From assembly GCA_002372175.1 (NCBI GenBank), contig DFIS01000080.1, positions 1-39,664 of the forward strand: a stretch of DNA of 39,664 nucleotides, in the 5' to 3' direction. The notes below the pieces were generated by a model, which searched no databases, was not told the origin of the DNA, and was given only the letters and a program-made list of their open reading frames with translations. The position numbers and the translations under genes were made by a program. Shown piece by piece: positions 3,353 through 16,681 of the stretch. The first letter of the stretch is position 1, and the number at the start of each line of letters is the position of its first letter. The DNA comes from Solobacterium sp. UBA3691. GTDB lineage: Bacteria > Bacillota_I > Bacilli_A > Erysipelotrichales > Erysipelotrichaceae.

Positions 3353-6220
3353 TCACCTGACGATCTCAAGACCATCTACGGTATTCAGTTTACCCTCGGC
3401 TGCCACTACACATACGGCAGCCTTTTTCATGCCCTCTTCGAGCCAGTCCGCCAGCTGTACAAAGTCCTCCGGCGTCGTATGCAGAAGCTCTTCACGCAGC
3501 TTTTTGCGGTATTCATACGTAATACCGCTGATCTGACGCAGATCTTCAAGACGTATTCTGGACTGCGGAGACTGCAGCGGATCACCGGCTGCTACAGCAC
3601 CGATGATATACGCGTCCAGCGGGGTATCGCCCCTGGCCAGCTCACGTGTGAATTCACCCAGTGTCTTTGTGATATGGATCGTATTCGCCGGATCGGGATC
3701 ACGGAAAGAGTATGCGGTAAGCGTACCGTCAGCTCCCACGGAAAGTCCGGTACCGTAGGCACCGCCCTTGACTCTGACTTCATTCCAGAGATAGCCATAC
3801 GTCAGGATATGACTCAATGCCCTGATCGCTCCGGAGATCCTGCCGCCGACATCCTTCAGGTTGAACGAAGCTGCACTGTAGGCAATACCTGCAGGAATGA
3901 CCATGCCCTCCTGCTTTCTATCTTCGATCGGGAAGTGTACAACACCTCTCTCGAATCTCTGTGTCTGGTACTTATCCGAAAGATCGGTCAGAGCTTTCAG
4001 ATTCTCTTCACCGGTCATGCTCAGGATCATGCGCTCCCTGTTGAACAGGATATCCCTGTACATCTCCAGATTGGCGATGAATTCCTCAGCTCTTTCATCA
4101 TAGTGTTCATACAGATCACTGACCCAGCAGATCGAGGCATAGCCATCGAGGTCTTCCCTGGCACTGCCGCCGGCACTGCACTGTGACGCTGTTCTGATCA
4201 TCGCCGCAAGATGACCGCTGCTGATCATCGCCTGTCTGTTGGCTTCGACCTCCTGTGCCAGAAGAGCCCTGATCATCTCCTTGTCGAAGATCGTCTTCTG
4301 GGTGATCTCCCATACCAGATCCATCGCCGTCTGCAGGTTCTTCTTCAGTACCTTGCCGGTCGCATACAGCAGCGGAATCGCCGCATCACGGTCTTCAGGC
4401 AGGGAACTGACCGTTGTCCCGAAAGCCAGTCCGCCAAGGTCTCTGCGGATGATCTGGCGCAGTTCTGTCAGGGTATGATCTTCGGTCGGAAGACTGCCGA
4501 GCAGATCCGCGAACTCACCGACTTCCGCCAGTGACTTCTTCGTAATACCGTTCATCAGGAAGTACATGCTGAAGTAGACGATACCTGTCTTCTCCTCCGG
4601 ATACAGCATGACCGGTATGCCCCTGTATTCACGCTTCTCCGGTTCATAACGCATCGGTTCTGCCGGTACATCACTGATCTTCAGCTGCGGCAATGTCGCC
4701 AGCTGTTCCGGTGTATCCGGTGTCTCCTGCCATTCATCCAGGACCCTGTTGATCTCCACGAAGGCATTAACATCTTCCCAGCTCTCTTTCGCCTTCTGCA
4801 GACGTGCTGCCTCTTCCGCTTCTCTTTCTTCACCGAGCGTCTTTGACGGTATGGCTGTCAGAATATTGACATCTTCTGCCAGAAGTCCCTCTCTGATCAG
4901 TTCTTCAAAGTATCCCTGATTCAGCTTCTCCCGCAGCTCATCGTAGTAATGTCCGGCATCGAGATACATCGTCGGATCACCATCATACAGCCAGCTTCTG
5001 AGCATCATCTCGGCATAGATGACACCGCTGGGTTCCTTGGGCTCATGGTAGCGGAACTCCATCCCGTTAAGGACTGCCTTTACCTCTTCCCTGTCGATAC
5101 CCTTTGTCACAATATCCGTCAGTACTTCTCTGACCGTCTTTAATACTTCGTCCTTCTTCTCAGGATCGGTATTTCTGACTGACAGTGTAATATACGGCTG
5201 GATCATCTCATCCATCAGGGCGATCTCCACATCCTGCCCAAGACCGCTGTCAATAATAGCCTTCTTTAACTGTGTCTCATTACTTCCGGTCAGTACACCC
5301 GAGATCACATTCCAGGCGATCTGTTTCTCCGGCTCCGTGTAGTCACCGACGATCTTGGCCAGTGTTACTACAGTCTTGGCACTTTCATCCTCATCCGGGG
5401 CGATCTCATAGATTACCGTACGGTCTTCAGCAGGCAGGATCTTCTGCATATCGATATGTACATGCATATCCCTGGCTTCATATTCCTGCAGTACTTCATC
5501 GATCCTTGTCAGTACGGTATCGATATCAAGATCTCCGTCCAGGAAGAAGTACGCATTGGAAGGATGATAGAATCTTCTGTGATCGGCAATAAACTGCTCA
5601 TAGGAAAGATCAGGAATATGCCTGGGATCACCTCCCGATACATACTGATAGCAGGTATCCCTGAACATCATTCTCTGCAGTTCATCGATAATGATCTCAT
5701 CCACGGAAGAGAAAGCACCCTTCATCTCGTTAAAGACAACACCCTTGTATATCGGTTCCTCTTCAGGATCTCTGATCTCATAGTGCCATCCCTCCTGATA
5801 GAAGATATTCGGATTTGTATAGATCGCCGGGTGGAATACCGCATCCAGGTAGACATCCATCAGGTTCAGGAAGTCCTGAGGATTCCTGCTGGATACCGGA
5901 TACATCGTCTTATCGTTGAAGGTCATCGCATTCAGAAACGTCTGCATACTCCCCTTTAACAATTCCACAAACGGTTCTCTCACAGGGTACTTCTTCGAGC
6001 CGTTTAAGACACTGTGTTCAAGAATATGAAAGACACCCGTATCATCCTCGGGTACGGTCTTAAACGCCACCGAGAACGTCTTATTCTCTTCATCACGCTT
6101 TAACCAGGCAAGCTTTGCGCCGGAGTGAGGATGTTCCATCACGATCAGCTCTGCCTGTATGTCATTAACCTTACGGATCTCCTTAACCGTAAAACCATGT
6201 ATGATCTCATTTATCTGCAT
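3353..6220 (-). CDS. M16C family zinc metallopeptidase (insulinase/PreP-like), 955 aa
   Basis: An inverted zinc-binding motif HxxEH (HILEHSV) lies near the N-terminus. The ~950-aa length and four-domain organisation are typical of M16C. Confidence 0.9.
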   Translation of the reverse strand: MQINEIIHGFTVKEIRKVNDIQAELIVMEHPHSGAKLAWLKRDEENKTFSVAFKTVPEDDTGVFHILEHSVLNGSKKYPVREPFVELLKGSMQTFLNAMTFNDKTMYPVSSRNPQDFLNLMDVYLDAVFHPAIYTNPNIFYQEGWHYEIRDPEEEPIYKGVVFNEMKGAFSSVDEIIIDELQRMMFRDTCYQYVSGGDPRHIPDLSYEQFIADHRRFYHPSNAYFFLDGDLDIDTVLTRIDEVLQEYEARDMHVHIDMQKILPAEDRTVIYEIAPDEDESAKTVVTLAKIVGDYTEPEKQIAWNVISGVLTGSNETQLKKAIIDSGLGQDVEIALMDEMIQPYITLSVRNTDPEKKDEVLKTVREVLTDIVTKGIDREEVKAVLNGMEFRYHEPKEPSGVIYAEMMLRSWLYDGDPTMYLDAGHYYDELREKLNQGYFEELIREGLLAEDVNILTAIPSKTLGEEREAEEAARLQKAKESWEDVNAFVEINRVLDEWQETPDTPEQLATLPQLKISDVPAEPMRYEPEKREYRGIPVMLYPEEKTGIVYFSMYFLMNGITKKSLAEVGEFADLLGSLPTEDHTLTELRQIIRRDLGGLAFGTTVSSLPEDRDAAIPLLYATGKVLKKNLQTAMDLVWEITQKTIFDKEMIRALLAQEVEANRQAMISSGHLAAMIRTASQCSAGGSAREDLDGYASICWVSDLYEHYDERAEEFIANLEMYRDILFNRERMILSMTGEENLKALTDLSDKYQTQRFERGVVHFPIEDRKQEGMVIPAGIAYSAASFNLKDVGGRISGAIRALSHILTYGYLWNEVRVKGGAYGTGLSVGADGTLTAYSFRDPDPANTIHITKTLGEFTRELARGDTPLDAYIIGAVAAGDPLQSPQSRIRLEDLRQISGITYEYRKKLREELLHTTPEDFVQLADWLEEGMKKAAVCVVAAEGKLNTVDGLEIVR

Positions 6221-6284
6221 AGTATTCCTGCCATTTCTAAGCCCATGGGCAATCTATGGATATTGTACCAACGGATAAGAGAAA

Positions 6285-6326
6285 GAGGCAATAAAACAAA
6301 ATACTCCTGTTGGACAAGAGTATTTC
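6285..6326 (-). terminator. Candidate weak rho-independent terminator downstream of the TIR gene 6554..9184 and upstream of the M16 peptidase gene
   Basis: An 8-bp stem AAATACTC/GAGTATTT (6299-6306 and 6318-6325) has an 11-nt loop. On the minus strand it is followed by UUUGUUUUAUU. The stem is AU-rich, so confidence is low. Confidence 0.3.
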
Positions 6327-6553
6327 TTTGCTGTCTCTCCCTGTTACTGCGGGACAGATATCGATTTACAGGACAATCAGCCACGGGGATGGGATGCATC
6401 ACATGACAAGTAACACAAACTTCTTCAATGCGTATTTCAGCAGAGAGTATCCCGCTAGATGTATGAAGAATTATCAAAAGATGATCAACTTCCGTACCGA
6501 TGCTCTAAGACATCATATTTCTTATTTAGAAACTGTAGAATTATAATTGCTGA

Positions 6554-9184
6554 TCAATTGATTTTCACCCACATAGCTGGACGGATCATGTACTCGTATT
6601 TTTGTTTAACAATCGGAGAATATCCATCAACGTATATACCATACAAGCCAATGCCTCCATCATGTACTCCAAAAGCAGCAGTATAAGGTTCTTGACCGGG
6701 CGAGCGCAGCCACCAATTAGAACCATTAGTGACATCGTTGACATAAACACCTTTCCCGAGTGTATATGGTGTTGCTTTTGCCAATCTTTCAGCATCAGAA
6801 TTAAAATACTGCTGAGCTTCCTGTATTGATAACAGGAATATCTTATCCTGTGTATCTTTTCCCGGATCTGTATTGTACTCCGGATTCTTGTCTGCTGTCA
6901 CAGTGCTTGTTTCAATGAGTGATTGTTCTTCACCGGTAAATGCTGATGAAATAAAATAACTATTCAACCATTTTCGAAGTGAACAAGTTTGCCATGTACC
7001 ATTCTCCCTTGATGTATCATATGGCTGACTGTCCAATCCGTATTCACTGATCAAAAGGATCCTGTTATCTTCTTTTGCTAAAACTTTCCATGTAATAGCT
7101 TCTTTGCCATTAGAAGTACTCGCATCCTGTTCATATGAACCAAATGTTACTATTTCTCCGGGCTTGGCAACCATAACTGTAACATACGGATTTTCTTCTC
7201 TAATAGATGCTGCCAGTTCAGCGCTGTCTTTATATCCATTCAAACCCATCAATATCTCATATGCGCCGGCATAATCTCCATTTTCTCGCATAGCAATTGC
7301 GGATTTATACTTATTGCTTGGAATTACCGTTGTTCTTATGATCACAAAAGCAACCACACAAAGAACCAAAACAGCAGTAACTATGCCAATTATGCTCTTT
7401 TTCTTTTTACGGGAGATTTCTTCCTGTTTTCTCTGAATCGCATACTGTCGCTCTATTTCTTTGCGATTCTCTTCTGTTAATCTGTCTATCTCCTTCTGGC
7501 AATACTCTGAATAACCGCCGCTTTCCTGATAACCCTTAAGCGAATCAAATACTGTTTTTGCTTTTTCAAAAGACGTTATATCTGTTGCGGCATTCATCGC
7601 AGTAATAGCTTGTGTATAGTCCAGATTTCTCCTTTGCTCTGCCTGCTCAGCCAATGCCTGCACTTCTTTATCTGCTTGTATAAGGAAAGCAGCATAATTA
7701 CTCTTCACCTTAGAAATACTGTTCTCATCTGTCTTTTTAGCAAGGGTGATACGCTCGTCCAAAATACGGTTTAATTCTGAGAGTTCATTTTCCAGCTTCT
7801 TCTTTGTTTCACCTTTAGCGTATTGTAATGCTCTGGTCAGATTACGTTCTGATTCCAATTCTTTTTGCAGCTTTGATTTTTGAATTCTTCTGCTTTGAAG
7901 ATAAGAGTCAAATCCAAGATCATATTGATATTGTCTCAGAATAGCTTCTCTGTCCAGGTATCCGTCAATACTGTATTTCTGTACTGCTGCATTAATATGA
8001 TCATTATCTTCCTGTCCTGCTTTTACTCGCTGGATGCCGGCATGTTTATACTCTTCTTTGTAATGATTAAACAAAGCTTCAAGATTTGGCTGACGGTTTT
8101 TCAGCAGAAGTTTTCCAAGATATGCTTCTGCAGATTCAGGCTCCTGATTCAGTGCTTCTTCAAAGAAACTATCGGCTTTATCCCATTCCTTGTCCTCAAG
8201 AGCTATCATGCCTCTTTTGACAAATGCCGAGGCACCACCTGAAGAATTGTTCTGAGTAACCGCCTTCTGAACAAACGGGGCTGCAGTCTCCTTTATAACC
8301 ACCTTTTTGATTCCACGAACCACATCATTGATAAATCCAATCTTACTCATGTCCTGTGCCTGGAGATGTGAGAATTCTTCAGGCAGGTCATATGCATCCA
8401 TATCTCTGTAGCAAGGAATCAGCAGCTTGGTACGGTCTTTTTTCATCAATTTCAGGAAACGTGACCATTCGTTCTTTACCCATACTGCATTGAAATACTC
8501 CGGTCTAGTGCCAATCACCAGCATTACTTTTGCTGTATTCAGTGCTGAGAAAATATACGGTTCATATTCTTTTCCCAGTTTATCTTCCAAAGTAATAGCC
8601 GCAAAGAATACTTTAAATCCTTCACGTGTCAGTTGGTAATAGATTTCATTGGCAATCACACTATCCTGTGTTCGTTTCCCAGATTCATCCGTCTCCTTAT
8701 AGCAGATGAAAACATCATATGGATCTTCTTTCTGTGCAAGGGCAAGGATTCCGCGCTGGATCTCATCGATCTCTTTAGCCTGAGCTTCATAGATTCCTCT
8801 TTGGGCAGTATCTGCGTAATATAATGCGTTCTTATAATCTTCATCCGCAGTGACTGATTCATATGACGCACGATGGCATGTCGGAACTCTCTTATACGTC
8901 ACCGGATCTTCAACATACTCAATACCGTACTTACAGAGGATAAGCCCCCAGTATGCTTCAGCTTCTGTTTCACTCCTCTGAAGGATCTTTTCATAGATCT
9001 CTGCTGCTTTATCAAACTCAGAGCGCATACGAAGCGTATTTGCTCTGTTGAAAAGCGTCTGCAAACCTTCATCATGAACAGAAGGAATTGTTTGTCTGGT
9101 ACCGCAGAACTCACATTCACATACCCTGCTTCCCTCTATAACGGTTAAATCACCGCCGCACATCTTACATTTCCATACCACCAT
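6554..9184 (-). CDS. Zinc-ribbon + TIR-domain + coiled-coil + single TM + C-terminal DUF6273-like domain protein (876 aa from the ATG at 9184; the ORF track extends to 9214)
   Basis: The N-terminus CKMCGG...CECEFCG forms a zinc ribbon. The TIR core DVFICYKETDESG...FKVFF...IFSALNTAKVMLVIGTRPEYFNAVWVKNEWSRFL spans about 8315-8722. A long K/E/Q-rich coiled-coil follows. A KKKK-SIIGIVTAVLVLCVVAFVIIRTT TM helix spans about 7328-7396. The C-terminal domain carries ITWKVLA, CSLRKWLN, KIFLLS and WWLRSPG motifs. AAGGAGA precedes the ATG at 9184, and this start aligns with the paralog start MVALKCKMC. Confidence 0.85.
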   Translation of the reverse strand: MVVWKCKMCGGDLTVIEGSRVCECEFCGTRQTIPSVHDEGLQTLFNRANTLRMRSEFDKAAEIYEKILQRSETEAEAYWGLILCKYGIEYVEDPVTYKRVPTCHRASYESVTADEDYKNALYYADTAQRGIYEAQAKEIDEIQRGILALAQKEDPYDVFICYKETDESGKRTQDSVIANEIYYQLTREGFKVFFAAITLEDKLGKEYEPYIFSALNTAKVMLVIGTRPEYFNAVWVKNEWSRFLKLMKKDRTKLLIPCYRDMDAYDLPEEFSHLQAQDMSKIGFINDVVRGIKKVVIKETAAPFVQKAVTQNNSSGGASAFVKRGMIALEDKEWDKADSFFEEALNQEPESAEAYLGKLLLKNRQPNLEALFNHYKEEYKHAGIQRVKAGQEDNDHINAAVQKYSIDGYLDREAILRQYQYDLGFDSYLQSRRIQKSKLQKELESERNLTRALQYAKGETKKKLENELSELNRILDERITLAKKTDENSISKVKSNYAAFLIQADKEVQALAEQAEQRRNLDYTQAITAMNAATDITSFEKAKTVFDSLKGYQESGGYSEYCQKEIDRLTEENRKEIERQYAIQRKQEEISRKKKKSIIGIVTAVLVLCVVAFVIIRTTVIPSNKYKSAIAMRENGDYAGAYEILMGLNGYKDSAELAASIREENPYVTVMVAKPGEIVTFGSYEQDASTSNGKEAITWKVLAKEDNRILLISEYGLDSQPYDTSRENGTWQTCSLRKWLNSYFISSAFTGEEQSLIETSTVTADKNPEYNTDPGKDTQDKIFLLSIQEAQQYFNSDAERLAKATPYTLGKGVYVNDVTNGSNWWLRSPGQEPYTAAFGVHDGGIGLYGIYVDGYSPIVKQKYEYMIRPAMWVKIN

Positions 9185-9265
9185 ACTTAAGTCTCCTTCG
9201 TAGTTTTCTGGCAAAAGCTATTCCTATTACATTTTTGGTTTATGATTCACCTATTTGTTATATTT

Positions 9266-10207
9266 CTATCCTTCAAAAATATCGGTCAAATGCTCATCCA
9301 AAAAGTTTTCTAGAGCAGCATTTACCAATCTCAGACACTTCAAATCCAAATCATTTTTAAACGCTATCAGCTGTATCGGTCTATTTGCATGAAACAGTGT
9401 GCACCGAAGGTAATATGACAGTTCACCGACGATAAATCCCTCTACGGTGATATCCTTTTTGACATGCTTTTCTATATAATGACTGATGATCTTATATGTT
9501 TTGGTTTCACTGTCCCGAATATCCTTCAGGAAGGTGTTTTCGCTGACTTCCTGCAGTGCCAAAAGCGGAGATTTTCCTAAGCTTTCTCGTTCTCTCTGTA
9601 TCAGCATTTCATTTCCAAGATGATATCGCCTTAAAATTCTCTCTATATTGGGTTTATCCTTATGTTTTTCAGCATCACGTCTGGATGAATAAAAACCATT
9701 AAATGCCATCCAAAGATTCTGAAACCGTTCTGTTTCATATGCTCTGCTTTTGCTGTACAAATATGCAGATAAAGCCGCGCTCTCACTTCCCTTTTCGGTT
9801 TTTGTTGCCGACATCGCTTTTTGAAGGAATTGAGTTTCCTTAACGTATTCCGGCAGGGGTCTCAACAATTTGGAATTGATCATCGAGTAAGGCATAAAGC
9901 TTGTATCGATAATCTCCTTACATTCATTCCCATCAATCACAGTTAATTCAAAGCATTGATTCTTGATAGGTGCTTCATATAGAAAAAGATGCAGGATCAT
10001 TGCACGCCTGATTCCTTCTCTCATGAGATTGATAAGATACTGATTATTTGTTTTTCTATAATCTTTACCAATCAAAGCACTGATCGTGTACTTATCCTTT
10101 GCTATCCGAACACTAATGTGATGGGTTCGCTGAAAAGAGAATTCAAACTTTTTAGCTCTTCTCAATTCATCATTACAGTTTACCTTTAACAAGTATTTCA
10201 GTTTCAT
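9266..10207 (-). CDS. Hypothetical 313-aa protein with a C-terminal Rx4H (HEPN-like) motif; possible Abi/HEPN-type RNase
   Basis: It is a clean ORF with island-typical AT-rich codon usage. The C-terminal YYLRCTLFHANRP fits HEPN Rx4-6H. It is predicted to be mostly alpha-helical. No other motif was recognised. Confidence 0.65.
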   Translation of the reverse strand: MKLKYLLKVNCNDELRRAKKFEFSFQRTHHISVRIAKDKYTISALIGKDYRKTNNQYLINLMREGIRRAMILHLFLYEAPIKNQCFELTVIDGNECKEIIDTSFMPYSMINSKLLRPLPEYVKETQFLQKAMSATKTEKGSESAALSAYLYSKSRAYETERFQNLWMAFNGFYSSRRDAEKHKDKPNIERILRRYHLGNEMLIQRERESLGKSPLLALQEVSENTFLKDIRDSETKTYKIISHYIEKHVKKDITVEGFIVGELSYYLRCTLFHANRPIQLIAFKNDLDLKCLRLVNAALENFLDEHLTDIFEG

Positions 10208-10277
10208 TCTTTTTCCTATTAACGTGACAGCCCTGAGGAACAGGGTGTTTTCACGTCTCTTATTGATCTGTTTTCAT

Positions 10278-10967
10278 TTACTTGTTTCGTGCACAAAGCA
10301 CATTTCTTTCTTTCAGCTGTGCAGTAATCTTTAAACAGCTTTTCTCTGCTTCTGAACTATTCTTTTCCGTCAGATATTTCTTCAATTTTTCCATCTCGTT
10401 CAGAAGATCATATTCATGCTGGATCGTCGCATCAGACGATACCGGATCACTATATTTAAACTCTTCTGTAAGATCCTGAAGTTTTTTCTTTAATGACCCA
10501 TCCTCACAAATACTAACTAATGCTGAACAGGCTGCCTGTAATGAACGCATGTTCGTAGTATCTTTCTTTATCTTTACTTCCTGTCGTTCTACTTCTTCTC
10601 TTGCTGCATCTGCTGCTACAGTACCTATAACAGCCAATGCTGCGGGCAGTATGTTGATCACGACAGCGATCCATGTCTTTATATATGGCGCAGCAATCAT
10701 CCCAATCAGACTGATCACCAACTGGGCAATCATATACATGACTCCTACACGTGCAATAGGAAAACCATAGAATTTACTTTTTGTTTCTGCTCCGTCAGCA
10801 AACGATATTTTCAGAACATACACCTGGAATACGATGGCAATTACACCAAACAGATATGAAATCCAGAAAACAGCATTTTTATTAAATGGAGCCGCAAACG
10901 CTATAACACTGAAGACGGCAAATATTACAGAAAGGATGATATACCGACGAAGTTCGTTTTTAGACAT
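10278..10967 (-). CDS. Hypothetical membrane protein, 229 aa. It has four N-terminal TM helices and a ~100-aa C-terminal coiled-coil/soluble domain.
   Basis: The hydrophobic helices are IILSVIFAVFSVIAFAA, FWISYLFGVIAIVFQVYVL, VGVMYMIAQLVISLIGMIAAPYI and IAVVINILPAALAVIGTVAA. Its start lies 2 nt after the stop of the upstream SPFH gene, which indicates translational coupling. Confidence 0.75.
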   Translation of the reverse strand: MSKNELRRYIILSVIFAVFSVIAFAAPFNKNAVFWISYLFGVIAIVFQVYVLKISFADGAETKSKFYGFPIARVGVMYMIAQLVISLIGMIAAPYIKTWIAVVINILPAALAVIGTVAADAAREEVERQEVKIKKDTTNMRSLQAACSALVSICEDGSLKKKLQDLTEEFKYSDPVSSDATIQHEYDLLNEMEKLKKYLTEKNSSEAEKSCLKITAQLKERNVLCARNK

Positions 10968-10969
10968 GT

Positions 10970-12820
10970 CTATTCACCTCTTCTCTTTCCGCATATATTG
11001 CAGAAGTTACCGATTATATTCTTGTTACCGCACGAGCAATCCCATGTTGCAGGAACCGACGGTTCCGGTCTCCTGGCTCCGCACATATTACAGAAATTGC
11101 CAATGATATTCTTATTGCCGCATGCACAGTCCCATGTATCCGGTTTAACAGGCTGCGGTCTTCTGGTTCCGCACATATTGCAGAAGTTACCGACGATATT
11201 CTTATTACCGCATGTACAGTCCCATGTATCTGCAACCGGCTGTGTACTTGTTGCAGGATTCGGTACTGCACCTGTCTGTGTCATGTTCATATTTTGGAAC
11301 ATACCGCCAATCTGCGGTGCAACTGCATTCATTGCAGCAAGTCCTACACCAAGACCAAGCATGTCACCCATAACATTGGAGCCCCCGCCTGCAGAGATTG
11401 CCGGTCCCATATTCCCGATTCCTTCAGCATATGCTTTCTGCACTTCAGCCTGCAGTACGTCCCTTTGAGAATATCCCTTGGCAGCCATAACCTCTGCTTC
11501 TGTTAAACCTGCCATTCTCTGTGCCTGCGCTTCCGCCTGGGCAGCAATGACTCTTCTTTCAGCTTCACGTCTGGCGATCTCCGTTTCAGTCGTCTGTCTC
11601 TGCAGTTCAGCTTCACGGCGTGCTGCTTCGATCGTCGCTCTGCTTTGTTCCTGCGCGGTTCTGTACTGAGTCTCTGCCTGTGCCTGTACAGTCTTTATCG
11701 TTGCATCTGCCTGCACAACTCTTGCCTGAAGGGTAATTGTATGCAGTTCTCTTATCCGTTTGAAATTCGGATCATTTTCCGGAAGCACCACACTTGTTAC
11801 ATATAACTGAGGGATGGTTAAACCATATTCTTCAAATCCCGGAAGAATCTTCTGTCTGAGATTTTCAGATATAAGATCCAGCTTCTCATCAATCTCCAAA
11901 AGATCAATATTCTCATTTTTAATTACTGAAGACAGATTGGTTTTTACAGCATTTGCGATTAATGGCCGGAAGGATGCCTGAAGTGATTTTGTCATACCTT
12001 CCCCACCGTCCCATGAAACTCCTTTTGTTGTTCCTACAAGCTTTACAAGCAGTTTCCTGGCATTAGATACCTGTAGATTCATTTCACCGGATGCTCCGAT
12101 CTCCAACGGTGTACCGGTCAATGGATCAATGAAGCGTACTTTTTCCGGTGTCCCCCACTTAATAGCCATCTGAACAGTCTTATTAATAAAATACACTTCA
12201 GAGTGGAAAGTCCTGTCTGTATCTGTAGGCAGCTGATAAATAGAATCCAAAATCGGAAGTTTCTGAGTTTCAAGTGTGTATCTGCCCGGTCCAAACAGAT
12301 CTAACGCCTGGCCATCTCTGAAAAAAACCGCTTCCTGACTTTCGTGCACGATCAACTGAGATCCCATATTGAAATCTTCTATAGGATGCTTCCAGATAAA
12401 AGTATTATTATCTCCTTCATATTTGATGATGCTTGCCAGACCGTCTTTTCTCATCTTTTCAGCCATCAGGCGTTCCGGAACATTATTCACAAAGTCACAA
12501 ACTGGACATGTATAGGAAGATGCCGCCTTGCTGGTGATCAGTTTCACACCACATTGGGCGCAGGAAAATTCTGCCATTTTATCTTGGCCTTCCATCGTAT
12601 TGATTGGTTCTCCGCAGACAGGACACTTCGCCTTTGCTCCTTTTGACTGATCAAAAACAACATCATTGCTGCAGTGAGGGCATTTTCTGCTTATAAGTTT
12701 ATCCATACGAACATTAATCGTGTAACCGCAGGAACAATCAATTTTCTTTCTTGCAAAGAACCCACTGCTTGCTTCTACATATTTGCCGCAGTTCGGACAC
12801 TCCATTACGAATTTAGACAT
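10970..12820 (-). CDS. SPFH/band-7 family protein (Band_7_1/COG4260-like), 616 aa, with three N-terminal CxxC...CxxC zinc ribbons and three C-terminal tandem 30-aa RanBP2-like zinc-ribbon repeats
   Basis: The N-terminal ribbons are CPNCG...CSCG, CPHCS...CPVCG and CAQCG...CPVCD. The SPFH-like core runs about aa 130-380. A Q/A/E/R-rich coiled-coil (ATIKTVQAQAETQYRTAQEQ...) is followed by a Gly/Met-rich linker. The repeats are 3x TWDCxCGNKNIxGNFCNxCGxRRP. A GAGGGAGA RBS precedes the ATG at 12818-12820. Confidence 0.85.
   Translation of the reverse strand: MSKFVMECPNCGKYVEASSGFFARKKIDCSCGYTINVRMDKLISRKCPHCSNDVVFDQSKGAKAKCPVCGEPINTMEGQDKMAEFSCAQCGVKLITSKAASSYTCPVCDFVNNVPERLMAEKMRKDGLASIIKYEGDNNTFIWKHPIEDFNMGSQLIVHESQEAVFFRDGQALDLFGPGRYTLETQKLPILDSIYQLPTDTDRTFHSEVYFINKTVQMAIKWGTPEKVRFIDPLTGTPLEIGASGEMNLQVSNARKLLVKLVGTTKGVSWDGGEGMTKSLQASFRPLIANAVKTNLSSVIKNENIDLLEIDEKLDLISENLRQKILPGFEEYGLTIPQLYVTSVVLPENDPNFKRIRELHTITLQARVVQADATIKTVQAQAETQYRTAQEQSRATIEAARREAELQRQTTETEIARREAERRVIAAQAEAQAQRMAGLTEAEVMAAKGYSQRDVLQAEVQKAYAEGIGNMGPAISAGGGSNVMGDMLGLGVGLAAMNAVAPQIGGMFQNMNMTQTGAVPNPATSTQPVADTWDCTCGNKNIVGNFCNMCGTRRPQPVKPDTWDCACGNKNIIGNFCNMCGARRPEPSVPATWDCSCGNKNIIGNFCNICGKRRGE
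10991..11260. repeat. Three tandem direct repeats of 90 bp, high DNA identity, in-frame within the 3' end of the SPFH gene
   Basis: Units begin at 10991, 11081 and 11171 (gcaYatattRcagaaRttRccgaY...cagtcccatgt). They encode the 30-aa zinc-ribbon repeats TWDC(T/A/S)CGNKNI(V/I)GNFCN(M/I)CG. The opposite-strand ORF 10998..11468 shows the same periodicity and is an artefact. Confidence 0.9.
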
Positions 12821-12939
12821 TATAATTCTCCCTCTTCAGTGCTTTTACTTATCTCCTGAATCACTTCATTAAAAACAGTCAGACTGTTCTTCTTGTTAAT
12901 TGGTATATCAAGAATTTTTGCGTCATGATCCATATTCAT
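12820..12939 (-). CDS. Possible small ORF (39 aa, MNMDHDAKILDIPINKKNSLTVFNEVIQEISKSTEEGEL) translationally coupled to the SPFH gene
   Basis: Its TAA stop shares one nucleotide with the SPFH ATG (TAATG). There is no convincing RBS and no recognisable domain. It lies in a 332-bp AT-rich intergenic region. The longer 64-aa version in the ORF track is unlikely. Confidence 0.2.
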   Translation of the reverse strand: MNMDHDAKILDIPINKKNSLTVFNEVIQEISKSTEEGEL

Positions 12940-13152
12940 TTCTGCTGATAGCCTACAAATATATACCGATATTATTTTGCCGATTTTTTGCGATCTACCA
13001 CGATATATGAACATTGATCTTTTGACTTTGTTATTACAGCAAGTTCGCTCTGTCCTGCCTTACTTCCGTAAATCTCAAATACATTGCTATGTGATTATGG
13101 GATCGACGCTTTGCAACATTTCCCGGGCTTCGCTGGATTTCTGATTTTAGGA

Positions 13153-15738
13153 TTAGTCGATTTTCACCCATAAAGCGGGGCGGACCGTGTTACTGTCATC
13201 ATCCACGGAGTCGCCGATCACATCGACAAGAACAGAGATCTTAGCAGCAAACCCGGAATCGCTGCCGGGCGACCGCAGCCACCAGGAACACATTCCTTTG
13301 TCATTTGTATAAGCTCCATTCTTTTTTGCGTATGGCGTTGCTTTAGCACTTCTATTTTCATCGGATTTGAAATATTTGTTTACTTCAGGCACAGATAAGA
13401 GAAATATCTTATCCTGTGTATTCTTACCAGGGTCTGCAGGATACTCAGGATTCTTATCCGCAGTTACTTTTGTCGTAAGAATCCGTGCTTTTTCCTGTCC
13501 ATTAAACACAGTATTATAGAACTCTTTATTCAACCATTTTCTTATCGAACATTTTTCCCATGTTATACTTTCGTATTCTTCGTTGTATGGCTTCGCATCA
13601 ATTCCATCTTCTGTAATCAGCAGTGCTCTGTCTTTTTTAACTTCAAGTATTCGCCATTTAATTGGTTTCTTCTGAGAATCATATTGATAAGTGCCAAACC
13701 CTTGACTTATTATTTGAGCTTTATTAATTAACGGGTTTATTGCATTTATAATCATTGCCTTTGCAGAGACAGTATTATTTTGATGTATGATTACTGCTTT
13801 CTTTTCCGGCTTTGGCTTTTGTACGGGTTTATCTGCTGGCTTGGTCACTGGTTTCGTTTCAATGAGTGTTTTTTTCAAAGCCGCAATATTATCCTCCAAC
13901 TCTTTTCTCTTTTTGCCGGAGAACAAACCTTTCAAATTCTTTTTTTCAGATTCTAATTTCTTTATTTTCTCTTCCAATTCACCTTTTTTCTTCTCTGCGG
14001 TTATACATGATTCTTCATAATCAATTTTGGATTGTTCCCATTTCTTTACAGCTAGATTATTATCGTTTTCCCATTGACTAATATCTCTCTGGTAAGAATC
14101 TTCAGCGTCTTTTTCCGCTTTCTTTCTTGCTGTTTCTTCCTCTATTTTTATTTTGGAAATCTGATCAGCATTTTTTTCTAAACGATCAGAAATATCTCTT
14201 TTAAACAATTCTGACTGTTCAGCCAATAATTTTTCTGCATTTTTTCTCTTTTCTAATTCTTTTGACATTTCAGATTTAAGAAGATCCCTGAGTTTGTCGA
14301 TCACTTTGTTTATTTCTTTTTCAACATTTCCATCTTTGTATCTGCATGCGCGTTTGTAATCGCGGTTGTTAAGAAGTTTCCCAAGACCTTCAACTGATAA
14401 ATTTCTGAATGCCTCCCTATAGCACACAGGATCCTCTAGTGTAAATGTTATTTTTTCAGGATGTAAGCCAATCAGCAATTTATCCAGTTCCTGATCAGAG
14501 AATTCATCGAGGAAGTGCCGAGAATCTGCTTCCCTTGCATATGCATGCGCCTCAAATGGAAGCGTCTGAACCCATAAATGTTCTTGCGCGTGCTTTTTAA
14601 TCTGGTCAAATAATTTTTTTGCCAATTCTGCTGAGCAATTCGAATTATACACGCACAGTACTTTCCCCCAGTAAGCAGCGCCACATTCTGCATCATTGTT
14701 AAGAACCTGCTCATAAAACTCATTAGCTCTTGTAAAATCACCATCTTCAATTGCCATATTGCCACGTTTCAATAGTGACTGTGTCTGCGCGTTCAAAACT
14801 GACAGCCCGCTGTCAGTATTTTTTTCTTCTTTTTCCTTATTATCTTTTCTCAGAATTTTATCGATCCCTCTCAAAAGATCCTGCATTGCACCTACTTTTC
14901 CCATATCTTGTGCCTGCAGTCTTGCAAATTCCTTCGGCATATCATATGCATCCAGATTTTTATATACCGGGATCATTGTTTTCTTTTCTCCTGAAGCTAT
15001 AAGATGAAGATATCTACTCCATTCGTTCTTTACCCATACCGCATCAAAATATTCAAATTTTGTTCCAACGGCCAGCATCAGTTTGGCGGAATGAAGTGCC
15101 GCAAAGATATATGGTTCATATTCCGTGCCGAGTTTATCTTCTAACGTAATTCTGGAGAAGAATACCCGATATCCCTTTTCAGTTAAAGCATTATAAATAT
15201 CCTGTGCCAGAACACTGTCCAGTGTCCTTTCTCCGTTTTCATCGGTTTCTTTGTAGCAAATAAAGATATCATACGGCTGTTCATTGGAAGATACTTCTAT
15301 TATGCCTTTTCTCAGATCTTCAATTTTCTTAGCCTCGTCACGATATACACGCTTTGCAACTGCATCAGCATATTCCATGACCATCTCATAATTATTGTCA
15401 TCAAAAATACTTTCAAACGAGGATCTGTGGCAGGTAGGCACTTTCTTTCCGGTTAGCGGATCATCAACATACTCTATTCCATACTTGCAAAGAACCAGTC
15501 CCCAGTATGCTTCTGCTTCTTCCTGAAATTCAGAAATGATAGCTTCATATACACCGGCAGCTTTGTCGAATTCATTATTAAAACGAAGTCTGTTTGCCCG
15601 TGTAAACAAATTCATCTTTTTTTCATTATCCGCATTTGGAATTGTCTGCAAAGTTCCGCAGAATTCACATTCACATACTGTACTGCCTTCTATCGGTGTA
15701 AGATCTCCACCGCACATTTTACATTTCAGAGCCACCAT
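13153..15738 (-). CDS. Paralogous zinc-ribbon + TIR + coiled-coil + C-terminal DUF6273-like domain protein, 861 aa, with no predicted TM helix
   Basis: It is about 60-65% identical to the 6554..9184 product over the first ~300 aa, from MVALKCKMCGGDL to the TIR core DIFICYKETDENG...AVWVKNEWSRYL at about 14854-15276. The middle is extremely K/E-rich and coiled-coil (ELEKRKNAEKLLAEQSELFKRDISDRLEKN...). The C-terminus carries ITWEKCSIRKWLN, KIFLLSVPE and WWLRSPG motifs. GGAGGG precedes the ATG. Confidence 0.85.
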   Translation of the reverse strand: MVALKCKMCGGDLTPIEGSTVCECEFCGTLQTIPNADNEKKMNLFTRANRLRFNNEFDKAAGVYEAIISEFQEEAEAYWGLVLCKYGIEYVDDPLTGKKVPTCHRSSFESIFDDNNYEMVMEYADAVAKRVYRDEAKKIEDLRKGIIEVSSNEQPYDIFICYKETDENGERTLDSVLAQDIYNALTEKGYRVFFSRITLEDKLGTEYEPYIFAALHSAKLMLAVGTKFEYFDAVWVKNEWSRYLHLIASGEKKTMIPVYKNLDAYDMPKEFARLQAQDMGKVGAMQDLLRGIDKILRKDNKEKEEKNTDSGLSVLNAQTQSLLKRGNMAIEDGDFTRANEFYEQVLNNDAECGAAYWGKVLCVYNSNCSAELAKKLFDQIKKHAQEHLWVQTLPFEAHAYAREADSRHFLDEFSDQELDKLLIGLHPEKITFTLEDPVCYREAFRNLSVEGLGKLLNNRDYKRACRYKDGNVEKEINKVIDKLRDLLKSEMSKELEKRKNAEKLLAEQSELFKRDISDRLEKNADQISKIKIEEETARKKAEKDAEDSYQRDISQWENDNNLAVKKWEQSKIDYEESCITAEKKKGELEEKIKKLESEKKNLKGLFSGKKRKELEDNIAALKKTLIETKPVTKPADKPVQKPKPEKKAVIIHQNNTVSAKAMIINAINPLINKAQIISQGFGTYQYDSQKKPIKWRILEVKKDRALLITEDGIDAKPYNEEYESITWEKCSIRKWLNKEFYNTVFNGQEKARILTTKVTADKNPEYPADPGKNTQDKIFLLSVPEVNKYFKSDENRSAKATPYAKKNGAYTNDKGMCSWWLRSPGSDSGFAAKISVLVDVIGDSVDDDSNTVRPALWVKID

Positions 15739-15905
15739 GATGATCCCTCCATTTCCCCTTATAATTGATTAAGATTATCTATTTATCGCAATTCGCTCAA
15801 TCTGGACTAAAACGTGTACTTTTTTGCTTGGTAATATGTCTAAATCAAATTTTAACATATACCGCTCTTTATGCGCATAACAATAAGGTACTTAGAAGCT
15901 AATAC

Positions 15906-16597
<692 letters not shown>

Positions 16598-16681
16598 TCA
16601 TCCATGTTTTCTGCGCATGCATATATGAAAAAGTCACCTGTATGTAACCCTTGATTTGATACAGTTGACTTTCTTTCTTTA

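Follow-up and report, generated by a model that had tools for sequence, protein, structure and literature searches.

The window analysed in this study, a stretch of 39,664 nucleotides of contig DFIS01000080.1 from Solobacterium sp. UBA3691, carries a gene for an SPFH protein with zinc ribbons at both ends, hereafter SPFH616, which lies with four co-directional neighbours (TIR886, P313, TM229 and TIR861; Table 1) in an island of low GC content. The island extends from about position 6200 to 16600, with GC fractions of 0.37-0.42 (0.47 in a single 1-kb window) compared to approximately 0.51 in the flanks, and it is situated between an M16-peptidase gene and a predicted dehydrogenase-like gene. 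An earlier note on this DNA had placed the protein between two TIR genes and proposed that, tightly coupled to the gene of a protein with four transmembrane (TM) helices, it could be the scaffold or effector of a TIR module. The placement was confirmed, since both flanking genes match Pfam TIR_2 (E=1.4e-11 and 2.9e-11), and the 2-nt coupling to the 4-TM gene was also found as described.

The association of these genes was examined in a scan restricted to one genome per species, in which 264 related stretches were found and 80 loci were analysed. These loci span Lachnospiraceae, Oscillospiraceae, Ruminococcus, Acutalibacteraceae, Christensenellales and other groups, and their SPFH proteins share 48-77% identity with the query. 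Clustering of the 1020 neighbouring open reading frames (ORFs) revealed only three recurrent families, all encoded on the SPFH strand, namely the SPFH protein itself (76 loci), the 4-TM protein (64 loci, median distance past the SPFH match 7 nt) and a family of TIR proteins that begin with a zinc ribbon (ZnR) and TPR repeats (103 genes in 63 loci), while no further flanking family recurred in more than 12 of the 80 loci. Considering the same-strand company of the SPFH gene, a TM229-like gene was present in 68 and a ZnR-TPR-TIR gene in 63 of the 80 loci; the TM229-like gene lies directly 3' of the SPFH gene in 64 to 68 of them, the aligned ends of the two being separated by a median of about 7-12 nt. 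In 35 loci the sequence extends 5 kb or more to each side; every one of these contained a TIR gene (TIR861-type in 34, TIR886-type in L057) and 34 contained the 4-TM gene, so that the recurrence of TIR genes beside SPFH616 homologs, proposed as a check of the module, was evident. The TIR genes, one to five per locus by strict count, were found only upstream of the SPFH gene in 23 loci, only downstream in 23 and on both sides in 17, and this varied position, along with SPFH identities down to 48%, indicates that the linkage survived rearrangement and long divergence. Moreover, of 80 metagenome loci obtained in a reverse scan from the TIR head, 56 contained an SPFH gene, and the others are mostly contigs that end near the match. 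More distant Band_7_1 genes, for example on a Bacteroides plasmid and on a Ralstonia megaplasmid, are neighboured by polyamine genes or by genes for small membrane proteins or zinc-ribbon proteins and not by TIR genes, and therefore the TIR link is specific to the Clostridial SPFH subfamily.

These data show that the SPFH and 4-TM genes are the two invariant core members of a mobile cassette that many Clostridia of the gut and rumen carry, and the sequences of its variable members show between one and five or six paralogous ZnR-TPR-TIR proteins with a conserved head and diverse, putatively ligand-binding tails. Together with the SPFH assignment described below, the co-occurrence with TIR genes supports the scaffold-or-effector role suggested for SPFH616.

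Table 1. Coordinates of the genes, protein segments and other elements of the low-GC island, on the numbering of the window.
Feature	Position	Strand	Description or basis
Hairpin	6298..6326	-	Terminator-like, downstream of TIR886
TIR886	6554..9184	-	ZnR, TPR, TIR_2, TPR, coiled coil, one TM helix (ORF residues 604-634), DUF6273
P313	9266..10207	-	Variable 'slot' gene between TM229 and TIR886; orphan, Rx4H motif
TM229	10278..10967	-	4-TM partner, 229 aa; start 2 nt past the SPFH616 stop codon
SPFH616	10970..12820	-	616 aa, ATG start; soluble SPFH protein of Band_7_1 (YdjI/SamI) type
Three tandem C-terminal zinc ribbons (aa 533-610)	10991..11224	-	Motif matches; 90-nt tandem repeat
Gly/Ala/Met-rich low-complexity linker (aa 466-530)	11231..11425	-	Composition; pLDDT <50
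A/R/E/Q-rich long helix (aa 351-445)	11486..11770	-	Composition and AF2 model
Band_7_1/SPFH domain (aa 149-349)	11774..12376	-	Pfam and Foldseek
Three N-terminal Cys4 zinc ribbons (aa 1-113)	12482..12820	-	Cys positions
TIR861	13153..15738	-	ZnR, TPR, TIR_2, TPR, coiled coil, DUF6273; no predicted TM helix
Serine recombinase (resolvase)	15906..16567	-	Island edge; frameshift-split near codon 105

Two observations stand beside this pattern. At L097 (9968-11146), the one clear exception, neither an SPFH nor a 4-TM gene lies within 10 kb to the left or right of a solitary truncated ZnR-TPR-TIR gene of 392 codons, and at L047 an SPFH and 4-TM pair with 67% identity to the query was found on a contig binned to a metagenome-assembled genome of Paludibacteraceae (Bacteroidota), which may reflect horizontal transfer or a binning error.

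The SPFH core, which had been recognised from the sequence alone, was corroborated by profile hidden Markov models (HMMs) and by fold comparison. Residues 149-349 of SPFH616 match Pfam Band_7_1 (PF13421) with E=2.5e-37 and 129 bits (cutoff 24), and Band_7 (PF01145) is matched with E=1.2e-8 and 35.7 bits (cutoff 23.6), so the significant HMM match leaves the proposed assignment standing. No PDB chain matched the sequence at E<0.06. The full-length AlphaFold2 (AF2) model is of low confidence and was used for fold class only; in Foldseek its best PDB matches were flotillin, prohibitin, stomatin and HflK/C (E around 1e-5), every one of the 28 matches at E<=1e-3 belongs to these four groups, and target-normalised TM-scores reached 0.75 on isolated SPFH domains at sequence identities of 10-17%. 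The Q/A/E/R-rich stretch, described earlier as a coiled coil, was likewise borne out as a long helix: residues 351-445 consist mostly of A, R, E, Q and T and are modelled as one helix over 351-437 with block means of about 74-81 in the predicted local distance difference test (pLDDT). It is the counterpart of the coiled-coil segment that forms the wall in SPFH cage proteins. The Gly/Met-rich linker is also present, with 13 Gly, 9 Ala and 7 Met among its 65 residues, and is modelled as disordered. No TM segment was predicted in SPFH616 and no hydrophobic window reached threshold. More than 8000 database proteins match the family, and full-length relatives with 64-86% identity occur in Lachnospiraceae under the name 'SPFH domain-containing protein'.

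SPFH616 contains 24 Cys residues in total, all of them invariant in an alignment of 50 sequences. The three zinc ribbons expected within about 110 N-terminal residues were found, formed by six Cys pairs that start at residues 8, 29, 47, 66, 87 and 105 (8/11-29/31, 47/50-66/69 and 87/90-105/108), and in Pfam they gave only generic zinc-ribbon matches, all below threshold. At the C-terminus, the motif W-x-C-x-C-x3-N-x5-C-x2-C occurs exactly at residues 533-550, 563-580 and 593-610, in the form W-D-C-x-C-G-N-K-N-I-[VI]-G-N-F-C-N-[MI]-C-G (family consensus TWDCxCGNKGIxGNFCNNCGxKR), and is encoded by three copies of a 90-nt tandem DNA repeat (10979-11243) with 68-81% identity to the reference copy. 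Among 77 family members, the N-terminal ribbons number three in 57, one in seven and none in 13, and the C-terminal ribbons number one to five in 76 and none in one member, the 3+3 form of SPFH616 being the most frequent (22 of 77). The presence of one to five copies of the 90-nt unit in almost all relatives suggests that the C-terminal ribbon number changes through recombinational expansion and contraction. Besides, members with zero or one N-terminal and one to five C-terminal ribbons keep the same partners, and in loci L050-L060 the SPFH protein lacks N-terminal ribbons and both the 4-TM and TIR partners are retained; judged from these sequences, the 3+3 decoration is not essential to the family.

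The three tandem C-terminal ribbons had been described as RanBP2-like, and of this claim the three motif copies stood and the RanBP2 label did not. In both kinds of Cys4 ribbon, about 20 residues in length, a Trp precedes the first Cys pair and an Asn lies between the two pairs. The RanBP2 consensus is W-x-C-x(2,4)-C-x3-N-x6-C-x2-C, whereas SPFH616 has one residue instead of two to four within the first Cys pair and five instead of six after the Asn. Pfam Zn_ribbon_RanBP (PF00641) matched a single repeat with only E=1 and 9.1 bits (cutoff 27) and did not match the triple repeat, and no RanBP2-type finger was found when the PDB was searched by sequence with the C-terminal ribbons. To judge from its sequence, this element is better called a YdjI-family C-terminal zinc ribbon, 'RanBP2-like' being a resemblance of pattern only. 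Searches of a phage collection returned no full-length match to SPFH616 and only matches to the ribbon repeat, in small unannotated human-faecal contigs (MT837562.1, MT839061.1 and MT838602.1) with tandem repeats 44-49% identical to the W-x-C-x-C-G ribbons and without an SPFH domain, which indicates that this ribbon type is also present in phage proteins.

The partner TM229 has four N-terminal hydrophobic helices, according to hydropathy and an AF2 model with a mean pLDDT of 84.5, followed by a helical domain of about 110 residues that is predicted to be cytoplasmic by the positive-inside rule. The motifs SKFYGFPI and F-x-YSDPVS are conserved in this protein, and no family of Pfam, NCBIfam or PADLOC matched it.

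In the TIR proteins, a head of about 300 residues maintains 50-70% identity while the tails diverge, and it is recognised by the motifs K-C-K-M-C-G-G, G-I-E-Y-V-x-D-P, Y-E-P-Y-I-F-A-A-L and A-V-W-V-x-N-E-W. The Glu of W-V-x-N-E-W (E239 in TIR861, within W-V-K-N-E-W) is conserved in at least 90% of 99 aligned heads, and W[VI]xNEW occurs in 149 of 150 distant representatives. It sits where the catalytic residue would be expected and is putatively so assigned by motif position only, because no PDB sequence match was found and PDB searches gave no useful sequence relative of the head. At E<=1e-30 the first 150 residues of the head are matched by 2395 cluster representatives out of 1.84 billion, 279-1643 aa in length.

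The tails of 57 scanned TIR proteins contain LRR_5 (10), DUF6273 (9), RCC1_2 (8) and LRR_8 (8) domains and also Sel1, MORN and WG repeats, and about 44% of the TIR proteins have a TM helix after the TIR domain, individual proteins running from TIR through the TM helix to LRR_5, Sel1, RCC1 or DUF6273. The leucine-rich repeats (LRRs) of these relatives are described as BspA-type and the RCC1 repeats as a propeller, while both tails in the window are DUF6273, a C-type-lectin-like domain that serves gut phages for receptor binding and is diversified there by diversity-generating retroelements (PMC10743442; bioRxiv 10.1101/2024.10.15.618418). LRR- and RCC1-tailed TIR genes share loci with SPFH genes, and in L078 an LRR_5-tailed TIR gene lies directly upstream of the SPFH gene. 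Additionally, ZnR-TPR-coiled-coil paralogs without a TIR domain occur in the same cassettes as SPFH genes.

The cassettes are found in mobile settings and accommodate other genes. Intact homologs of the resolvase at the island edge immediately precede the SPFH gene in L003, L004, L005 and L163, and one is found close upstream on the Butyrivibrio fibrisolvens plasmid pNP21 (L164). In L163, an IMG/VR phage contig (59-15037), genes for portal, major head, structural, tail-fibre and GH25 endolysin proteins precede the cassette and are followed by a 521-aa gene of no assigned function, a resolvase, the SPFH and 4-TM genes, an HEPN-like gene (pEK499_p136, E=3.6e-5) and a TIR-DUF6273 gene, an order that places the cassette in a prophage moron position. 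The plasmid pNP21 (4925-10053) carries a TIR-less form, composed of a recombinase, a hypothetical gene on the opposite strand, an SPFH gene that lacks the N-terminal ribbons, a 4-TM-like gene that is apparently frameshifted or partly annotated and a 465-aa ZnR-TPR-coiled-coil protein without TIR domain. Between the core genes, 58 same-strand slot genes in 38 clusters were found, and those with significant Pfam matches encode RES, CAP12/Pycsar-type TIR (E=1e-33), DUF2971 (three genes), DUF4365, AAA_21 AbiEii-like ATPase and HNH proteins; others, in L003-L082, are STAND-like NTPases and, more weakly, HEPN-, SIR2_2- and AbiH-like genes. The slot genes may be alternative effectors or hitch-hikers.

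Among characterised proteins, the closest architecture is that of YdjI/SamI of Bacillus subtilis, in which a soluble Band-7 domain is combined with a low-complexity segment and a zinc ribbon at the C-terminus (PMC8581546; PMC11237479). YdjG (zinc ribbons plus a TM helix) and YdjH bring YdjI to the membrane, and YdjI in turn recruits PspA (PMC8581546; bioRxiv 10.64898/2026.02.06.704340). This published architecture places SPFH616, a soluble protein, in the YdjI/SamI branch of SPFH proteins. It has in common with the product of the pspA-ydjGHI/samGHI operon a Band_7_1-type SPFH domain, a Gly-rich low-complexity segment, a C-terminal zinc ribbon, the lack of a TM segment and a location beside genes for a membrane protein and for a protein that starts with a zinc ribbon. 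It differs in its three additional N-terminal ribbons, in having three C-terminal ribbons instead of one motif, in its partner, an unclassified 4-TM protein and not the TPM-domain protein YdjH, and in the proposed recruits, which are TIR proteins. No PspA or TPM-domain gene was found in the island, and no PspA-family gene recurs among the neighbours in the 80 loci. The 'Tir' of the CesT/Tir chaperone in the phage shock protein (PSP) paper (PMC11237479) is unrelated to Toll-type TIR domains. With the SPFH cage formers HflK/C, flotillin 1/2, prohibitin 1/2 and stomatin, which build large membrane-attached rings or cages, SPFH616 shares an SPFH fold followed by a long helix, whereas it has no TM or hairpin anchor and is only 10-17% identical; its oligomerisation would be expected by analogy. 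None of these four groups is known to carry zinc ribbons.

Thoeris (ThsA and ThsB) is similar in that TIR paralogs with a conserved Glu motif flank one constant partner in a mobile, island-like context, whereas the cassette TIR proteins are 800-1600 aa long and have ZnR-TPR heads and sensor tails of their own. No ThsA-type effector (SIR2-SLOG or Macro/TM) was found in the window, SIR2_2-like genes occur in about seven of the 80 cassettes as variable genes with sub-threshold scores, and assignment of the TIR proteins to the ThsB type was rejected (PADLOC ThsB E=0.0012 and 16 bits for one TIR protein; NCBIfam ThcB4 25.9 bits, with a cutoff of 220). Relatives of the window TIR proteins resemble Toll-like receptors in joining a cytoplasmic TIR domain, one TM helix and a repeat ectodomain, of LRR type among others, whereas in the cassette the TIR domain is N-terminal, so that the order is reversed, the ZnR-TPR head is bacterial and the tails in the window are DUF6273 and not LRR. 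This likeness is most likely convergence, and on these comparisons the cassette is neither a Thoeris system nor a Toll-like receptor. The combination of TIR, SPFH and 4-TM genes matched no PADLOC model or NCBIfam name, with only far-sub-threshold NCBIfam hits, and a full-text literature search, poor in subscription journals, found no work linking SPFH/Band-7 with Toll-type TIR domains, so that the cassette has apparently not been described before as a system.

SPFH616 probably organises a membrane-linked immune or sensing system. The reading that we tentatively favour, and which comes close to an even prospect, is that SPFH616 and TM229 act as a shared sub-membrane platform for the TIR sensors. 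By analogy with the anchoring of YdjI by YdjG and YdjH, TM229 would hold SPFH616 at the inner face of the membrane, and SPFH616 would oligomerise like other SPFH proteins into a ring or cage on which zinc ribbons would be displayed in large number, with six on each protomer. The TIR sensors would dock on this platform by their conserved ZnR-TPR heads, through the zinc ribbons and the SPFH surface, and might there be restrained or concentrated, and binding of a ligand by a sensor tail would lead to TIR-TIR assembly and to NAD+ cleavage or signal production, with growth arrest or an anti-phage response as the possible outcome. In this manner one common platform could serve several specific sensors. 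Docking is preferred over purely chemical coupling because the heads are conserved while the tails diverge and because TIR-less ZnR-TPR paralogs occur in cassettes and on pNP21. A defence function is inferred from association only; the context is of conflict type, comprising the low-GC island, the recombinase, the interspersed RES, CAP12, DUF2971, DUF4365, AbiEii-like and HNH genes and one cassette on a phage contig. A more specific form of this proposal, a hitherto unrecognised receptor system of bacterial innate immunity in which single-pass or cytosolic TIR receptors with LRR, lectin-like, RCC1 or Sel1 domains gather in a raft in the style of Toll-like receptors, on a flotillin-like SPFH cage anchored to the membrane by the 4-TM protein, with the ribbons docking the heads and a ligand bound outside or inside the cell switching on TIR NADase activity or signalling, is conceivable, although we consider it rather unlikely.

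Several points weigh against the platform. Every one of its mechanistic steps is drawn by analogy, SPFH616 is poorly modelled by AF2 (mean pLDDT of 59, with residues 126-216 below 50), and TM229 has no recognisable relatives and matches only generic helical bundles in fold. The N-terminal ribbons cannot be essential docking sites, because the 13 of 77 members that lack them keep their partners, and a few TIR heads, such as that of L097, have no SPFH gene within 10 kb. Furthermore, PADLOC-DB v2.0.0 returned no family for SPFH616, TM229 or P313, which counts against the platform as far as the SPFH/4-TM pair is concerned, and the interspersed defence-type genes may be only hitch-hikers of a hotspot.

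A possible but doubtful alternative is a Thoeris-like system, in which the TIR sensors would make a nucleotide signal and the SPFH/4-TM pair would be their shared effector; TM229, as a potential pore or membrane disrupter, would be caged or gated by the SPFH ring until binding of the signal or of an activated TIR protein released it, with depolarisation and abortive infection as the consequence. CBASS, Pycsar and type II Thoeris commonly use small multi-TM effectors, and the cassette offers one constant pair with one to five variable TIR paralogs, comparable to one ThsA with several ThsB, a nearly invariant putative catalytic Glu motif and, in most cases, no other constant candidate effector. 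Titles of PDB entries also name solved SPFH cages in the company of membrane proteins, as with FtsH-HflKC and aquaporin 1 bound to stomatin. However, no SLOG, Macro, SAVED, CARF or cNMP-binding domain was detected in SPFH616 or TM229 with Pfam, PADLOC and NCBIfam, the cytoplasmic domain of TM229 is a generic helical bundle, the similarity to ThsB and ThcB4 is far under the family cutoffs, and the TIR-less ZnR-TPR partners, including that of pNP21, argue for physical coupling. The existence of these partners and the lack of a detectable nucleotide-sensing domain are the reasons why the platform is preferred to an effector role of the pair.

The affinity with YdjI/SamI, which acts in membrane-stress signalling and differentiation, raises the further prospect that the module serves envelope surveillance or signalling and not immunity, as a Clostridial counterpart of the YdjGHI/PspA membrane-stress system in which the SPFH/4-TM pair would monitor or stabilise the membrane and the TIR-TM-lectin/LRR proteins would be surface receptors for cues other than phages, for instance glycans, neighbouring cells or host factors. 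This would agree with the many sensor tails predicted to be extracytoplasmic lectin- or LRR-type domains, and with the TIR-free surroundings of the distant Band_7_1 genes described above. We nevertheless regard it as improbable, given that no PspA-family gene is recurrent among the neighbours, that the cassette is located beside a recombinase in a low-GC island, on a plasmid and within a phage contig, its flanks differing between species, and that paralog expansion, hypervariable tails and interspersed RES, HNH, CAP12-type TIR and DUF2971 genes are typical of conflict systems. That the SPFH/4-TM pair and the TIR genes are unrelated and only share a defence island or integration hotspot, as the unrelated defence-type genes interspersed in the loci might suggest, is effectively ruled out by the presence of TIR genes in all 35 well-flanked loci of different species, always on the same strand, by the persistence of the linkage at SPFH identities down to 48% with varied gene order and non-conserved flanks, and by its recovery in the reverse scan from the TIR head.

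SPFH/flotillin proteins are universal and their bacterial roles are poorly defined, while TIR proteins hold a central place in bacterial, plant and animal immunity. A near-obligate linkage of their genes, extending over the 80 species-representative genomes and thousands of metagenomic variants, would give SPFH proteins a concrete job, namely the organisation of TIR sensors at the membrane. If the platform is real, a membrane-platform layer would be added to bacterial TIR immunity, and a large family of bacterial receptors resembling Toll-like receptors (TIR, TM helix and LRR or lectin-like domain) would exist in dominant gut and rumen Clostridia, whose phage-host biology is hard to study and matters for the microbiome.

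The remaining features of the island concern its borders and the genes around the core. The island showed neither a tRNA gene nor convincing direct repeats on its flanks. In the resolvase gene at its edge the N-terminal catalytic part lies in one frame and the remainder in another, and the same split is present in two independent public assemblies (L001 and L002). A 39-aa ORF proposed by the gene caller at 12820..12939 on the minus strand, with a stop codon overlapping the start of SPFH616, was seen elsewhere only in L001 and L002, which are further assemblies of the very sequence studied here, and was for this reason treated as probably spurious. A GAGGGAG ribosome-binding site lies 8 nt 5' of the SPFH616 ATG. 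The longest frame of TIR886 starts with TTG at 9214 and encodes 886 aa, while public gene calls and the family alignment support the ATG at 9184, giving a protein of 876 aa that begins MVVWKCKMCGG, and the hairpin downstream of this gene is likely the end of the co-directional gene block. P313 had no family match in Pfam, PADLOC or NCBIfam; its matches were two proteins only in a set of 5.8 billion and a gene of L035, with 33% identity, that lies immediately upstream of SPFH there. The conserved motif Y-Y-L-R-C-T-[LM]-[FI]-H-A gives an Rx4H pattern, and this motif alone suggests that P313 could be an HEPN-like RNase.

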